In this document: positions 5,800-39,103 of the stretch, piece by piece
How the letters are laid out: every line of letters begins with the position of its first letter
Numbering within the stretch: the first letter of the stretch is position 1
NCBI GenBank assembly: GCA_000004695.1
Contig: CM000151.3
Span: forward strand, 7,904,001-7,968,000
Source: Dictyostelium discoideum
Taxonomy: Eukaryota
Direction: 5' to 3'
Length of the DNA stretch: 64,000 bases
Position numbers and translations under genes: made by a program
Notes under the pieces: generated by a model
Database searches by the model: none
Told to the model about the DNA's origin: nothing
The model's input: only the letters and a program-made list of their open reading frames with translations

Positions 5800-6348
5800 A
5801 TGATAACCAATTTTAACGGAAATGAAAATAAAAAAAAAGTTTTAATATCATTCGATTCATTCAAAGATTGTTTAAGTTCATTCGAAATTGGAAAGTGTGC
5901 TGATAAATCATTAAAAGAAAAATATAGTGGTGGTAGTGGTAGTGATGAAAAACAGATTGAAACAGAAATTTTAAAAATTAGTGATGGTGGTGAAGCATTA
6001 CTCGAATGTTTAGAATCAAGTTTAGGTTTAAAGTTGGTTGAAATTGATACTAAGGAATATTCAATAATTGGACCATTAGGAACTCAAATTGAAAAACCAT
6101 TTGTTCATTATGCAGTAAATGAACAAGAGAAATATGCAGTCATTGAAATGGCAGAAGTTAGTGGTATTCAATTGGTTCCAACCTCAAAACGTAATCCATT
6201 CAATACTACTACCTATGGTACAGGTCAATTAATCAAACATGCCATCGAAATTGGTGGTTATAAAACAATTTATATTGGTGCAGGTGGTTCTGCAACAAAT
6301 GATGCTGGTTTAGGTGCATTACAATCTTTAGATGTGATCGATATTATT

Positions 6349-6413
<65 letters not shown>

Positions 6414-7113
6414 AAATAATAATATATTATTTGGTAAAGATTTAAATAAAATTAAAGAAATTAAAATAAAGAATAAATTTAAATTTAAAGATGTTTTATT
6501 TTATTTTTTAACAGATGTTAGAAATGTAATGATTGGAGAGAAGGGTGCAGTTTATAGTTTCTCTGAACAAAAAGGAGCGAAAACAAAAGAGGATAAAGAA
6601 ATATTAGAGAAAGGAATGATCAATGTTTTAAATCATTTACCAGTGGATATATCAATGATTGAAGGCTCTGGTGCTGCTGGTGGTTTACCAAGTAGTTTTC
6701 TTTCAATTTTCAATGAATCAACTCAAATCATTAATGGCATGGATTTCGTTTGTAAATCCTATGGTTTAGATGAGAAGTTTCAATCAAATCAAATTAAACT
6801 TATAATCACAGGTGAAGGTTGTTTTGATGAAACTACTTTAGATGGTAAAGTTGTTTCAAAAATGTATTATTACTCAAAAACATTCAATTGCAAGTTATTA
6901 ATTATATGTGGTAAAAATAATTTATTAAAATCATCATCATCATCATCATCAGCATCCAATTCATTCCCAAATGATTCAAATATTCAAATCTATGATTTAG
7001 TTTCACTATTTGGTATTGAAAACTCATTAAATAATACCAAACATTGTATTGAAACACTATTTAAACAAAATGAAAATTTAACAATGTTTTTAAATAAAAT
7101 TATATTATCATAA
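5800..7113 (+). CDS. Glycerate kinase (GlxK/GckA family), single exon, with a poly-Asn insertion.
   Basis: 437-aa ORF. The N-terminal SFDSFKDCLSS, ISDGGEALLE, GAGGSATNDAGLGALQSL and ITGEGCFDETTLDGKVV motifs match the glycerate kinase family. (AAT)n encodes an N24 insertion. Confidence 0.85.
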
Positions 7114-32706: not shown

Positions 32707-35143
32707 TTATAAATGAGAAAGATCAATTATATTAATATATTTTGTAATAAATAAAGGATTTAAACTATTGATAAAATTCATATTAGAATTTCTAATATAA
32801 ATAGTTTGTAAACCAAAAGGTATGCAACCATCAGCGGAAATATTTTGATTAAATTCAGAGTTTAGAATGAATAATTTTTTCAAAAGTTTTGGTAAAACAT
32901 TATTTCCAATTGGTTGATTGAAATGATAACCTAAATTTAGAGATTCTATTGAATTTGGTAAATCACCAACTTCAATTTTACGATTAAAATAATTTAGTGT
33001 CAAAGTTTTTAAAGATGTAGTATTTTTTAACATTTCTCTTAAACCATTATTTGTACCACCAACACAAAAATTGGATGAACTATTTGAACCGAAACCACCT
33101 TTATTACTAATACCATAGCAGTCATATTCATCATTTTTCACGGTTATCTCTCTATTGTAACCACCGAGATTTAAAGATTCTAAAGTTGGAGGTAAAGTAT
33201 CGGCAGGAATGATTTGATTGAAATGGTAACCGAAATTCAAAGATTTTAATTTGGTATGAATGAAAATACCTTGTGGTATAATTTGATTGAATTTTGAGCC
33301 GAAATCAATACTTGTTAAAGTTTGAGTCATCATTGATAAAGGTCTATTGAATTTATTACCAAAATCAATACTAGTGATACTTGAAGGACACAATTTAATA
33401 TCTCTATCGAATGCACGACCAAATTTAATCTCTCTAATTGAGTTTGGTAAAGACTTTATACCAATATCACTATTGAAATGTTCTCCGAAATGAATTGAGG
33501 TTAAATTATAATTTGAAGAGATATCATTTGCTTTAATATTTTGATTAAATTCTGAATCGAAAACAAGTCTTGTGATTGATTTTGGAATTGGATTAAATGA
33601 AATTGATTCTTGATTTGAACAAGAATTGAATTTATAATCTAAAGTTTTAACAGAATCTGGAATTGAACCAATTTCAATAACACCTTTATAGGATCTTGGA
33701 TCCAAAATCAATGATGTCAATGAGGATGGAAGTTGACCCATTTTAATGGTTTGTTGAAATTTATGACCAAATTGTAAATGTTTCAATTGTTTTGGAAGCC
33801 AATTACCATCCAATGATTGATTGAAACTATCACCAAATGTAATACTAATGACATTGTCACTAATTACACCTTTAGCAATTCTCTGATTGAAACCATAACT
33901 AAATCGAATTGAGGATATTGATGGTGGTAGCAATCTATCTTGAATTACATTATACTCTTTTTCAAATTCAATGGATTTTAATCCCTCTGGTAATGAATTC
34001 ACTCTAATCATTGATAATTCTAATAATGATGAATTTGATAATATTGAAGATGATGATGAATTTGAAATACCATTATTAATACTATTACTACTACTACCAA
34101 TATCACTTGAACCACTACTACTGCTACTACAATTACCACCATCACTATAACTATCATCATCGTCAATATCAGAATCATAGGAATCTTCATCAGCATCATC
34201 ATCATTATCATCATGATAATTTAATACCATTGATTGTAAATAACCTTTGAATTTATAATCCACCAATTGAATTGGTGTTAAAAATACCTTTTTATTTGCA
34301 TGAATATTATAAAGTCTAAGATGAAATAAAATTTGAGTTTTAATAACAATATTTCTCCAAACTTGACGAAATAATAAATAATTTCTATCATTAACACCGT
34401 TTGTTGTTGTTGTGGTTGTCATTATAGTGGTACTACTTCTACTAGTTGTAGTTGTAGTTGTAGTTGTTGTAATTTCACCATCATTACCATTTATTCTTTC
34501 ATTTTTTAATGTTATTATTTTATTTAAATCTTTTTCTTCAATTATTGAATTATTATTATCATTATTATTATTATAAATATTATTATTACTATTTTTATTA
34601 TTATTATTAAATTGGTAATCTTTGTTTATTATATTATTATTATTTTCAATTATTATTAATATTGAATAGTCAAATTTATTATTTCCACAACATTTATTAA
34701 GTGAATTGTGTGTATTTATTATTTTATTTTTACAATCGGTAGTTTTATTTTTTAATTTTAACAATCTGGTGAATTCATCTAATAACTGATATTGATTATA
34801 GTTTAATCCATAATAAGATATTGCTTCTTTATTTACAGTTTTATTTTCAATTAATCTATTATTAATTAATTTGGTAAGTATTTGATTTTTTGGGAAAATG
34901 AAAATAAAAATAAAAAAAAAATAAAAGTGTGCGTGAAAATATCTGAAAAAAAAAATAAAAAAAATAAAAAAAAAACAAAAAATAAAAAAATTAAAAATAT
35001 ACATACCTAAAATTATTACAATAATCCAATAATCCATCGTATGATATATATAATCCATTTATTGATAATATTAATATGCAATCTAAAAATGATTGTTGAT
35101 TATACTCTTTTTTTATTAAGAAATCATAAATTAAATTATCCAT
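32707..35143 (-). CDS. FNIP-repeat protein (Dictyostelium FNIP/LRR-like repeat family), 2 exons: 35007..35143 and 32707..34855. An alternative acceptor gives 32707..34942.
   Basis: About 15 tandem ~22-aa repeats of the form Lxxxxx(L/I)xFGxxFNQxI (for example SIHFGEHFNSDIGIKSLPNSIREIKFGRAFDRDIK), diagnostic of FNIP repeats. Exon 1 is MDNLIYDFLIKKEYNQQSFLDCILILSINGLYISYDGLLDYCNNFR, with donor GTATGT at 35006. Both candidate acceptors (CAG at 34943 and TAG at 34856) are in phase. Confidence 0.7.
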
Positions 35144-35875
35144 TGTGGTTAAGTGTGTGTATGTGTGGTTAAAAATAATTTTATTTTGAAAAAAAATAAA
35201 AAAAAAAAAAAAAAAAAATAGTTATTAGATTTGGGAATTGTTTGAAATACACAGGGTAAAGTCACAGGGTTTTGTTTTTACTTTTTTTCATTTTTCTGTT
35301 TTTTTTTTTGACATTTAGACGAACCAGGAATAGAAAAGTCAAAAATTAATTTTGAAATTTTTTTTTTTAATTTTTTCAAAACAGAAAAAAAATTCTGTCT
35401 GGTGTCCCCAGCTTTTTCTCGAAAAAAGAAAGATGACAATAAAAAATAATAATATTTGTAAATACAAAGATGATCTTTATTTTTTTTTATTATGTTTATC
35501 GATATCGTTGTTATTTTTATTTGACATTTTTATTTTTTTTGATTTTTGATTTTTATATTTTCTTAATACAATTTTTGAAACTATTAAATAATAAAATAAT
35601 ATATTAATTGAAGTTAAGATATTTTCAAGAAAAAAAAAAAAAAAAATTTTGGACCGAATTATGTATATTTATTAAAAAAAATAAAAATAACCTATTATTA
35701 ACATTAGAGTTATTTTTAAACCAATTAAAAGAATTTTTTTTTTTTTTAAATAATTTTTTTTTTTACTCTTTATCTATAATATCTTCCAAAAAGGAAATAA
35801 CTCGTTTTATGAGTTTTTTGTTATAAAAAAAATACATTCAACTGAATTAAGATTTAGCAGTATTAAAATTTTAAG

Positions 35876-35911
<36 letters not shown>

Positions 35912-36047
35912 CTTCTTTTTATTTTTCGATTTTTATTTTTTTTTTATTTTTTATTTTTTAATTTTGTTTTTATTTTTTTTTTTTTTACAAATAAATGAAA
36001 AGTTAAAAAGAGATTTATAAAACAATAAAAAAAAAAGTAAAAATATA

Positions 36048-37055
36048 ATGGAAGAAAAAATAAAATTTTATTTTGAAATAATTGATTTCCAAAATCAAAA
36101 ATTTAAAATTCAAGAATTTACCTCAAAATTAATTGGTTTAAAAGAAGAAAGTTTTACAACATTTAAACCAATAGTATATGAAAAATATTTAAATTGGACT
36201 CAATCAATTGAGGAATCAATTTTAAAAACAAATGGTACAATAAATAAATCAATTTTTGAAGAAATTTTTTCCTATTGCGGTTACATCGGAGAATTCCTGG
36301 AATATGAGCCTTTTATAGTATTTTTAAAATTTACAACATTTGGTATAATTTTAGATGATTATATATTTGAAAAAATTAATTCACTAAATATGAAATTAAA
36401 TGAAAAAGAAAAACTTATTAATAGTTTAATATATTATAATAATAAAAATGAAAATAAAATTGGTTTCGAATTCTGGGAAATAATAAATGAATTTCAAAAT
36501 TTTACACATAAAGAGTCATTTCAGAGAATAATAAATGCAAATAGTTTATGGATAAAATCATCAATTGATTCAAGGAATATTTCAAATTCCCCAATAAATT
36601 CAAGATGTTCATTTAATGAATATTTTGAAAAAAGATCATCAGATGCTTCGGGTGATTTTATTTTAACAATTTCTATGATTGGAATAATGGATAATTATAT
36701 TGAAAATTCTATAATAGAAAGTAAAGAATTTCAAACTATAAATTACCATGCAAAGTCTTTTTTTTTATTAATAAATGATTTATATTCATTTAATAGAGAA
36801 ATTAATGAAAATGATTTATTAAACTATATAAAGATATTAGCAATTCAATTAAATTCAATACAATTATCAATTGATAAAACAATTGAATTAATAATTGATC
36901 ATTATTTGAAATTTTTATCGTCAATTGAAACAATCTTAAAATTATACCAAAATGATCAATCAACATATCAATTATTAAAACAAGTTTTCCAAAATTCAAA
37001 TAAAATTTTATCTGGTATTTATTTTGCACATAAAAAAAGTAAAAGATATAATTAA
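36048..37055 (+). CDS. Terpene synthase (class I, microbial-type TPS), 335 aa.
   Basis: Aspartate-rich DDxx(D/E) motif ILDDYIFE and NSE/DTE motif NDLYSFNRE (ND-x2-S-x3-E) at the expected spacing of about 140 aa. The size matches the Dictyostelium TPS family. Confidence 0.75.
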   Translation: MEEKIKFYFEIIDFQNQKFKIQEFTSKLIGLKEESFTTFKPIVYEKYLNWTQSIEESILKTNGTINKSIFEEIFSYCGYIGEFLEYEPFIVFLKFTTFGIILDDYIFEKINSLNMKLNEKEKLINSLIYYNNKNENKIGFEFWEIINEFQNFTHKESFQRIINANSLWIKSSIDSRNISNSPINSRCSFNEYFEKRSSDASGDFILTISMIGIMDNYIENSIIESKEFQTINYHAKSFFLLINDLYSFNREINENDLLNYIKILAIQLNSIQLSIDKTIELIIDHYLKFLSSIETILKLYQNDQSTYQLLKQVFQNSNKILSGIYFAHKKSKRYN

Positions 37056-37346
37056 AATATTAAAAATTAAATAATAAAAAAAAAAAGATATATATACATA
37101 TATATATATATATAAATTACAAGATTGGTTGTTTTTTTTTTTTTAAAATATTTAATTTTTTCATTTTTATTATTATTACTATACCTACTACTACTACTAC
37201 TATTATTATAAAGATTATATTACTATTGTGGAAATGATAAAAAAAAAAAAACTTGAATTAACCATTATTAAATATTAATATTCAGTTTTTGATGAAAGAG
37301 GAGTTGTAAATAATATAGTTATAATTCCTTTTTCTTTTTTCTTTTT

Positions 37347-37408
<62 letters not shown>

Positions 37409-37453
37409 CTTTATAGGAGATGTTAATAACTATCAAACTAAAAACTATATTTT

Positions 37454-38263
37454 TCAATTATTATGGTTTTCATTTTCTTCTGAAATTTCTAATTTGTTCA
37501 TTTCTTTTTCTAAAGTAGATTCTTCAGTTGATTCATTATTTGAGGCTTCAACTTCTTTCTCATTGAATGGAATACCAGTCCAATCGTAGTTTTCATGTAA
37601 TTGACGACGCCATTTCTTGATTTGACCATCCCAAGATCTCTTTGAACAGACTTGATTCTTATTTGGGGTTTTTGGATCAGTTGGTTTTCTCTTTGATTTT
37701 GGAACCAAAGCAATGTAATTTTTGTAACCAGCTGTCATCTTACCAATATCGATTTGTCTTTGTCTAGCGGCCAATCTCTTTGGATCAGTTTCTTTGAGTG
37801 GAGTTTTCTTTGGTGATTCATTGGTTGAAGGAGTGGCACCATCGATAATGGCAACTGGTTGTTCAGTAGTGGTGGTAGAATTTGCAACGGCAGCAAAAGC
37901 GGCATTAACATCATTAATCTTTTTATTTGATTTTGGTGTGGTTGTTGTTGATTTCTTCGATGGTGTTGTTGTAGTATTCTTTTGATTTGGTGTTGCAGTA
38001 TTCAATGAAAATGGAATTGGGTTTTGTTTCTTTGTGGAAGATTTAGTGTTGGAATTATAATGATTGTTACGATTGTTTGATTGTGGTGTGGTGATATTTG
38101 AATTTGCTTTTTTAGTTGGTGTGATGTTATTATTATTATTATTATTATTAATATTAGTTTTTGTAGATGACGATTGTGCATAGGCAATTTTGAATGGACT
38201 AATTTGTGGTGAGAAAATTGGATATTTTTGACCATTTGCAGTGTTGTGTTGTGAACTGTTATT

Positions 38264-38297
<34 letters not shown>

Positions 38298-39103
38298 GGT
38301 GTAGTTGGAAGAGATAATGGTACAACAATTTCTTTTTGATGATTCTCTACAATATCAATTTGAATTGGTCTTTTGGTATTGGCCGATTTAAATGATAGGA
38401 GAACATCAATGGTATATTTAACAGAGGAGGAGGAGGAGGAAGCAGCAACGAAAGCATCGGTAAGTTTGGTGGTGGTGGCGGTTATTGATTCTAAATCGAT
38501 GGTAGAAATTGGAGATGATTCTCTAAGTGGGCTAGATAAAGGAGAGATACCACCAGTGGAGATATCCATACTCTTCAATTCTTTTTTAATGGATTCAATA
38601 TCATATTCATTTTTGGCTAACAATGATGATGATGATGACGAATGTTTTGTTGTTGAAACCATTGAGTTTTTAGAAGGTGTAAATAAAATATTTTTCTTTC
38701 CAAAATTAACACCATCATTACTATTTAATTTTCTATCTTTATTATTATTATTTACATTTGGTCCATTACCAATAATACCAACAGAGTTTTTCTATTTATT
38801 TAATTATTTATTAAAATATAAAAGAAATAAAAAATAAAAAATAAAAATAAAAAAAAATTAGTTTTTATTTTTATTTTTTTATTTTTTATTTATATTGTTT
38901 AATTTAAATTATTTAAATTTTAAAAAAAAAAAAAAAAAAAAATACTTTACCTTTATTGGTGCATTATTTGGTGAATTTGGTATATTATTTTTAATATTTT
39001 TAAATAGTGTTCTATTGGTTTTTGAATTATGGATACCATTGGTAGAACTATTATTATTAGTTGTGGTGGTGGCGATTGGTGTAATTATAGTTGATGATGA
39101 CAT
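37454..39103 (-). CDS. slbp: Histone stem-loop binding protein (SLBP) homolog, 2 exons: 38951..39103 and 37454..38791.
   Basis: C-terminal RNA-binding domain RLAARQRQIDIGKMTAGYKNYIALVPKSKRKPTDPKTPNKNQVCSKRSWDGQIKKWRRQLH matches the SLBP RBD signature (human ...[25 protein letters not shown]). Donor GTAAAG at 38950, acceptor TAG at 38792, in phase. Confidence 0.8.

Follow-up and report, generated by a model that had tools for sequence, protein, structure and literature searches.

Which enzyme is encoded at positions 36048-37055 of this stretch of Dictyostelium discoideum DNA, and what does it make? The window (the whole 64-kb stretch that was analysed) is very AT-rich, with a GC content of 14-30% in 2-kb bins. 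A sequence-only reading had proposed a class I terpene synthase at this position from two metal-binding motifs, and had held that neither the family member nor its product could be told. We find that the locus is, with high confidence, D. discoideum DdTPS4 (DDB_G0277385, Q75J90), a single-domain microbial-type class I terpene synthase that has been reported to produce (E)-nerolidol. Its identity, domain family, catalytic-residue conservation, fold, synteny and purifying selection are established in the present analysis. The literature has described this gene, the family to which it belongs and its product since 2016, and the locus is held in UniProt as terpene synthase 4. The reading frame is thus an ordinary gene that had already been catalogued as DdTPS4, and its value here lies in calibration: a microbial-type terpene synthase in an amoeba was rightly recognised from two motifs in raw sequence.

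Identity of the locus

The gene is a single ATG-to-stop open reading frame of 335 codons plus a stop codon, on the forward strand, and encodes 335 residues, as the sequence-only reading had it (Table 1). An exact-sequence look-up in NCBI and UniProt revealed that this protein is 100% identical, over its full length, to XP_642676.1, EAL68749.1 and UniRef100_Q75J90. The UniProt entry Q75J90 is named "Terpene synthase 4" (TPS4_DICDI, DDB_G0277385) and comes from D. discoideum AX4, which places the gene in a dictyostelid, as had been supposed. Because the annotated database protein equals the reading frame, the DdTPS4 gene has no intron; the orthologues start and stop as DdTPS4 does, and an intron is absent from them as well. 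The GC content of the reading frame is 19.0%, versus 11.8% in the 500 bp upstream and 13.0% in the other flank.

The link between the name DdTPS4 and the locus DDB_G0277385 rests on the UniProt name and on a cross-check against the closest paralogue. We found no mention linking this locus to DdTPS4 when literature text and supplements were searched for DDB_G0277385, and supplements for XP_642676 and Q75J90. Two observations bear on the numbering. First, the published pairing of DdTPS2 with UniProt Q7KWU0 (TPS2) and of DdTPS9 with Q54YE2 (TPS9) (PMC10088877) indicates that UniProt numbers follow the DdTPS numbering. Second, the closest D. discoideum paralogue of our protein is TPS8_DICDI, as published for DdTPS4 and DdTPS8, which supports the same correspondence independently.

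Table 1. Features of the DdTPS4 locus and its immediate neighbours, in window coordinates
Feature	Coordinates	Strand	Basis
DdTPS4 coding sequence, complete, single-exon	36048..37055	+	ORF list, exact database identity, Pfam PF19086, orthologue start/stop
Asp-rich metal-binding motif DDYIFE, aa 103-108	36354..36371	+	Orthologue/family conservation
R196 codon, presumed diphosphate-sensor Arg, 47 residues upstream of the NSE Asn	36633..36635	+	Invariant in family
NSE motif NDLYSFNRE, aa 243-251; triad N243, S247, E251	36774..36800	+	Conservation, alignment
C-terminal RY pair, R333-Y334	37044..37049	+	Conservation; aligns with RY of Ap.LS 8gy0 and DbPROS 8h72
FNIP-repeat gene, head-to-head neighbour	32707-35058	-	Pfam FNIP match
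Intergenic, very AT-rich, 989 bp, shared with FNIP-repeat gene; presumed promoter region	35059..36047		Sequence, ORFs
Intergenic 3', 398 bp, DdTPS4 tail-to-tail with SLBP gene	37056..37453		Sequence, ORFs
SLBP gene, last exon	37454-38662	-	PF15247 SLBP_RNA_bind, E=4.8e-30

A microbial-type class I active site

The protein matches Pfam PF19086 (Terpene_syn_C_2, "Terpene synthase family 2, C-terminal metal binding") with 56.4 bits (E=4.3e-15), well over the cut-off of 23.7, and the match spans residues 94-284, corresponding to positions 1-195 of the 199 in the profile. In the same Pfam search, the plant-type N-terminal domain PF01397 gave no match, and the plant-type PF03936 scored 20.5 bits, under its cut-off of 26.3. 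DdTPS4 is a microbial-type and not a plant-type enzyme.

Class I terpene synthases are expected to carry four sets of residues: an Asp-rich motif, an NSE triad, a diphosphate-sensor Arg and an RY pair. The first two had been noticed in the raw sequence, and both are present as described. DDYIFE is a DDxxxE variant and not the canonical five-residue DDxxD/E, whereas NDLYSFNRE aligns with the NDxxSxxxE of solved terpene synthases. D103 and N243 are 140 residues apart, which upholds the claim of correct spacing, since about 140 residues is the usual distance in microbial enzymes of this class (D80 to N219 in pentalenene synthase). The pattern [ND]Dxx[ST]xxxE occurs only twice in a six-frame translation of all 64 kb, and the DdTPS4 NSE motif is one of the two. 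Two further catalytic signatures are added here, namely R196, which lies 47 residues ahead of the NSE Asn, close to the expected 46 or so, and which we take to be the diphosphate sensor by its role in bacterial class I terpene synthases, and the C-terminal pair R333-Y334. The class I active-site inventory is therefore complete in DdTPS4, together with a class I fold.

These residues are conserved at two evolutionary depths. Among orthologues, D103, D104, E108, R196, R333 and Y334 are invariant, and NDLYSF(N/K)RE is present in all aligned sequences except one (P0005), whose gene model skips that stretch; no orthologue whose gene model is intact lacks either metal-binding motif. In a wider family alignment of 23 sequences, mostly dictyostelid, identity to DdTPS4 is only 20-27%; the columns without variation are D103, R196, D244, S247, N259 and R333, and those conserved in at least 90% of sequences are D104, E108, Y192, N243, F248, E251, I271 and Y334.

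Fold and solved relatives

The AlphaFold2 model computed from the 23-sequence family alignment is helical throughout, with a mean pLDDT of 90.0 and a pTM of 0.90. An AlphaFold run on nine close orthologues was also helical, but unreliable (pLDDT 47.7), and was discarded for the family model. Used as a Foldseek query against the PDB, the family model gave 247 matches at E up to 0.001. The best 50 of these 247 are all microbial class I terpene synthases, with TM-scores of 0.67-0.78 and a probability of 1.00, and include the pentalenene, epi-isozizaene, 1,8-cineole, T-muurolol and trichobrasilenol synthases, the N-domain of geosmin synthase, and the linalool synthase Ap.LS.

Sequence comparison with the PDB points the same way once the family is taken as a whole. 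A single-sequence search gave only marginal matches (E of at least 0.026), and the orthologue profile did little better (E=0.0046). The family profile matched 122 distinct solved terpene synthase sequences; the best was the linalool synthase of Agrocybe pediades (8gy0, E=4.7e-29) and the next was delta-6-protoilludene synthase (8h72, E=9.5e-29), both over almost the full length.

The sequence-only reading had offered two tests for its own refutation, a predicted structure lacking the alpha-helical terpene synthase fold, and Asp-rich motifs that are not conserved in orthologues. As the fold is confirmed and the motifs are conserved, neither refutes it, and the assignment to class I terpene synthases stands on the Pfam score, the conserved catalytic residues and the fold.

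Distribution and selection

Orthologues of DdTPS4 were found only in the group comprising D. discoideum, D. citrinum, D. dimigraforme and D. firmibasis. Relative to the protein of AX4, identity is 90-96% in other strains of D. discoideum and D. cf. discoideum, 70-73% in D. citrinum, 67-70% in D. dimigraforme and 58% in D. firmibasis. A word-indexed homologue search gave six orthologue clusters from the single protein, and the same six when it was repeated from the orthologue alignment at E up to 10.

Paralogues surfaced only in an exhaustive HMM profile search of 1.84 billion representative proteins, which itself yielded just 20 matches at E up to 0.001. Among these 20 are D. purpureum TPS6, TPS7 and TPS11; terpene synthases of Heterostelium, Tieghemostelium and Polysphondylium; unnamed proteins on short metagenome or read-assembly contigs (JGI/IMG, Logan); and one oribatid mite protein and one fungal protein. 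The sole D. discoideum paralogue among them is TPS8_DICDI, 33% identical over 199 residues. A protein that is not a terpene synthase and has SIR2-like and TPR domains (P0026, E=2.1e-05) is probably a low-complexity false positive.

A protein of Tieghemostelium lacteum (P0010, E=2e-53) was considered as an older orthologue and rejected: its score is summed over three separate terpene synthase domains, and each of these, at about 30% identity, is no closer to DdTPS4 than DdTPS8 is. This 873-residue protein (KYQ93189.1) carries the three domains consecutively in one gene model, and is either a true triple-domain protein or the product of three tandem genes merged by annotation. Two other architectures were observed. 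The gene model of D. purpureum XP_003289235.1 (P0021, 787 residues) unites a RhoGEF domain with half of a terpene synthase domain, the C-terminal one. In Oppia nitens XP_054158417.1 (P0022, 649 residues), an oribatid mite protein, there are two microbial-type terpene synthase domains, an example of the family in an arthropod.

Pairwise Nei-Gojobori estimates of dN/dS, approximate given the biased codon usage, range from 0.16 to 0.43 and lie below 1 in all ten pairs, which indicates purifying selection of moderate strength. Intact single-exon orthologues, with all catalytic residues kept, are present in four related taxa.

AT-rich genomes are rich in spurious reading frames dominated by Asn, Asp, Ile and Lys, and the motif matches could in principle be coincidences in a chance open frame. 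The probability we give to this explanation is close to nil. The Pfam match exceeds its gathering cut-off, the structure model is confident and has its Foldseek matches, orthologues exist at 58-96% identity, and the GC content of the frame is higher than that of its flanks; together, the Pfam, orthologue, model and Foldseek results refute it.

Neighbourhood and strain variation

DdTPS4 lies between an FNIP-repeat gene and a gene for an SLBP-family protein, both on the opposite strand. The tail-to-tail arrangement with SLBP recurs in five related assemblies. The wider order, in which a minus-strand gene of ~770-800 residues is followed by TPS4 and by another minus-strand gene, is kept in D. firmibasis, D. 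citrinum, D. dimigraforme and D. cf. discoideum; across these four related taxa, Pfam confirmed SLBP in three and FNIP in one.

No P450, prenyltransferase or second terpene synthase was found by Pfam among the 27 reading frames of at least 150 residues in the 64-kb window. With FNIP-repeat and SLBP genes as neighbours, DdTPS4 is not part of a TPS-P450 cluster, an arrangement described in the literature only for DdTPS8, DdTPS2 and DdTPS3. A scan of the DdTPS4 flanks for bacterial promoters and terminators returned 30 sites versus 26.2 expected, no more than chance would give, and no terminators, a result that is irrelevant to a eukaryote. Poly-T or T-rich tracts of ~40-70 nt are present in both flanking intergenic regions (35860-35990 and 37330-37410); long tracts of this kind are a usual feature between genes in Dictyostelium, and we attach no function to them.

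Several other reading frames in the window were of note. Two neighbouring frames on the reverse strand (58538-59218 and 60365-61039) carry a LUD domain of the lactate-utilisation type (PF02589, E=1e-32 and 2e-38) and look like a tandem duplication of a bacterial-type gene. A forward-strand frame at 5800-7113 holds a full glycerate kinase domain of bacterial type (PF02595, E=3e-74). PHO80-like cyclin domains (PF08613, E=1e-31 and 1e-29) are found in two forward-strand frames 24 kb apart (23670-26066 and 50174-51136), which are possibly paralogues. The 758-residue frame at 42446-44725, on the reverse strand, combines matches to Ras-family GTPases in two stretches with weak Sec23-trunk or VWA-like matches, an unusual combination; an upstream exon is likely, since the first Ras-family stretch starts mid-profile.

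In the D. discoideum assembly GCA_054859385.1 (L001:3001-4004, homologous to 36048-37055 of the window), the TPS4 orthologue carries a deletion of 1 bp that precedes the NSE motif. The site falls at about window positions 36717-36722, where AX4 reads TCTATAATAGAAAGT versus TCTATAAT-GGAAGT. The annotation bridges the frameshift by an 'intron', giving the 296-residue model mentioned above (P0005), which is missing residues ~223-261, NSE motif included. Either this strain carries a pseudogene allele or the assembly is wrong at this site. As one strain assembly holds such a frameshifted copy, DdTPS4 may be dispensable.

Could DdTPS4 be a decaying or non-functional terpene-synthase-like gene? The deletion in one strain assembly, dN/dS values of up to 0.43 in some pairs and the confinement of the orthologue group to D. 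discoideum, D. citrinum, D. dimigraforme and D. firmibasis would fit decay. Against this, AX4 and four other taxa have an intact frame in which every catalytic residue is kept, dN/dS is below 1 in all ten pairs, and expression and activity are reported for all nine DdTPSs (PMC6524965). We thus consider decay highly improbable and treat DdTPS4 as a functional enzyme below.

Reported product and proposed reaction

The primary biochemistry is that of Chen et al. 2016 (PNAS), in which GC-MS of the recombinant enzyme supplied with farnesyl diphosphate (FPP) reportedly gave (E)-nerolidol as the main product. The assignment that we use is a later, secondary statement by the same group: the eLife 2019 study (PMC6524965, citing Chen 2016) gives (E)-nerolidol, an acyclic sesquiterpene alcohol, as the product of DdTPS4. 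The view that member and product could not be told has therefore been overtaken, the gene being TPS4_DICDI/DdTPS4 and its product published.

The same study places the enzyme in its biological setting. Each of the nine full-length TPS genes of D. discoideum is expressed during the multicellular stage, and each proved active in tests; sesquiterpenes made by DdTPS1-4, 6, 7 and 9 occur in the volatile bouquet; the headspace profile has a labelled nerolidol peak; and (E)-nerolidol is reported among the volatiles released during multicellular development. DdTPS4 is described there as the terpene synthase closest to DdTPS8, and the acyclic product of the one is contrasted explicitly with the cyclic product of the other (PMC6524965).

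Product and emission are thus taken from the literature, and the following sequence of events is our proposal, drawn by analogy with the family. Three Mg2+ ions would be held by D103, D104 and E108 of the Asp-rich motif together with the NSE triad N243, S247 and E251. This trinuclear cluster would bind the diphosphate of FPP, while R196 and R333-Y334 would hold the diphosphate in place and seal the active site. FPP would then ionise to an allylic farnesyl/nerolidyl cation. Finally, water may capture the cation at C3, with no ring closure, to release acyclic (E)-nerolidol.

The substrate range could be broader than FPP. It is possible, if doubtful, that DdTPS4 is a promiscuous acyclic-alcohol synthase that in vivo also turns GPP into linalool or GGPP into geranyllinalool. 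Linalool is among the compounds given off by D. discoideum, and several recombinant DdTPSs form it (PMC6524965); most D. purpureum TPSs accept GPP too, and seven accept GGPP, according to the literature; and the solved sequence that best matches the family profile belongs to a linalool synthase from a fungus, whose sister enzymes are linalool/nerolidol synthases. The linalool-forming recombinant enzymes named in PMC6524965 are, however, DdTPS2, DdTPS3 and DdTPS9, not DdTPS4, and chain-length preference is not settled by anything in the DdTPS4 sequence. We retain FPP as the substrate and (E)-nerolidol as the product.

The region proposed to separate linear from cyclic products

Work on fungal enzymes has led to a proposed rule based on the motif 'GYxxWxxxxxRY', in which a Tyr at the position of Ap.LS Y299 goes with linear products and an Asn (in the text also Asp) with cyclases (PMC10088877). 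In DdTPS4, residues 323-327 read GIYFA (window 37014-37028), and by sequence alignment it is Ile324 that corresponds to Ap.LS Tyr299. The neighbouring Tyr325 is invariant in orthologues, and Ala327 stands where the WxxxxxRY motif has Trp. At the position equivalent to Ile324, both DdTPS8, which makes a cyclic product, and DpTPS6, which makes linear farnesene, have His. Since Ile324 is neither Tyr nor Asn, the rule leaves the acyclic product of DdTPS4 unexplained. On the alignment, the linear-product rule of PMC10088877 does not transfer to DdTPS4.

An alternative is that the mapping or the product is wrong and that the locus, like its paralogue, codes for a sesquiterpene cyclase. The residue at position 324 differs from the Tyr tied to linear products, DdTPS8 as the closest paralogue cyclises FPP to discoidol (PMC6524965), and the nerolidol product comes from a secondary statement and not from primary data. 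Yet the UniProt name matches, the closest-paralogue relation fits the published pairing of DdTPS4 and DdTPS8, and the authors themselves set acyclic DdTPS4 against cyclic DdTPS8 (PMC6524965). We judge a cyclase at this locus to be quite improbable and hold to DdTPS4 as the (E)-nerolidol synthase.

A joint reading can be put forward tentatively, as a rather unlikely one. The DdTPS4 lineage may arrive at an acyclic product via an active-site solution unlike that of the fungal and bacterial linalool/nerolidol synthases, with Ile324-Tyr325 and Ala327 instead of their Tyr and Trp in the G(Y/N)xxWxxxxxRY region, and the gene may be young, restricted to D. discoideum, D. citrinum, D. dimigraforme and D. 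firmibasis, and polymorphic for loss within D. discoideum. If this is true, DdTPS4 and DdTPS8 would form a natural system in which to study both the divergence of cyclase and acyclic activity and the role of nerolidol in development. The questions for the field are what use Dictyostelium makes of nerolidol, why DdTPS4 stops at an acyclic product while DdTPS8 cyclises, and whether any wild strains lack the gene.

Relation to known terpene synthases

The encoded protein and DdTPS4/TPS4_DICDI (Q75J90) are the same over all 335 residues, with no difference. The closest characterised relative in D. discoideum is DdTPS8 (Q54BE5), the discoidol synthase of the DdTPS8-CYP521A1 cluster. DdTPS8 shares with DdTPS4 the DDxxxE motif (DDYIYE in DdTPS8), the NDxxSxxxE motif and the RY end, and likewise makes a sesquiterpene alcohol (PMC6524965). 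Unlike DdTPS4, it cyclises FPP to discoidol and adjoins a P450 that processes discoidol, as described in the same study.

Among solved structures, Ap.LS of Agrocybe pediades (PDB 8GY0) resembles DdTPS4 in fold, with a TM-score of 0.70, and is the best sequence match of the family profile. Ap.LS and Ap.LNS, the fungal linalool and linalool/nerolidol synthases, also share the presumed course of the reaction, with ionisation and water capture and without cyclisation (PMC10088877). In contrast, Ap.LS is only ~15% identical to DdTPS4, has an Asp-rich motif of the form D-E-x-x-D, and carries Tyr299 in place of Ile324 and Trp in place of Ala327.

Bacterial class I sesquiterpene synthases (pentalenene synthase, epi-isozizaene synthase and the geosmin synthase N-domain) have the same single alpha-domain fold, with TM-scores of 0.70-0.78, but are 10-15% identical to DdTPS4 and are cyclases. 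The geosmin synthase N-domain (5dz2) has the best TM-score to the DdTPS4 model among the best 50 of the 247 matches, 0.78. Its motifs, DDHFLE (DDxxxE) and NDLFSYQRE, are very like DDYIFE and NDLYSFNRE. Plant terpene synthases (PF01397 plus PF03936) share the class I chemistry and the metal-binding logic with DdTPS4, and differ from it in possessing their own plant-type N-terminal domain.
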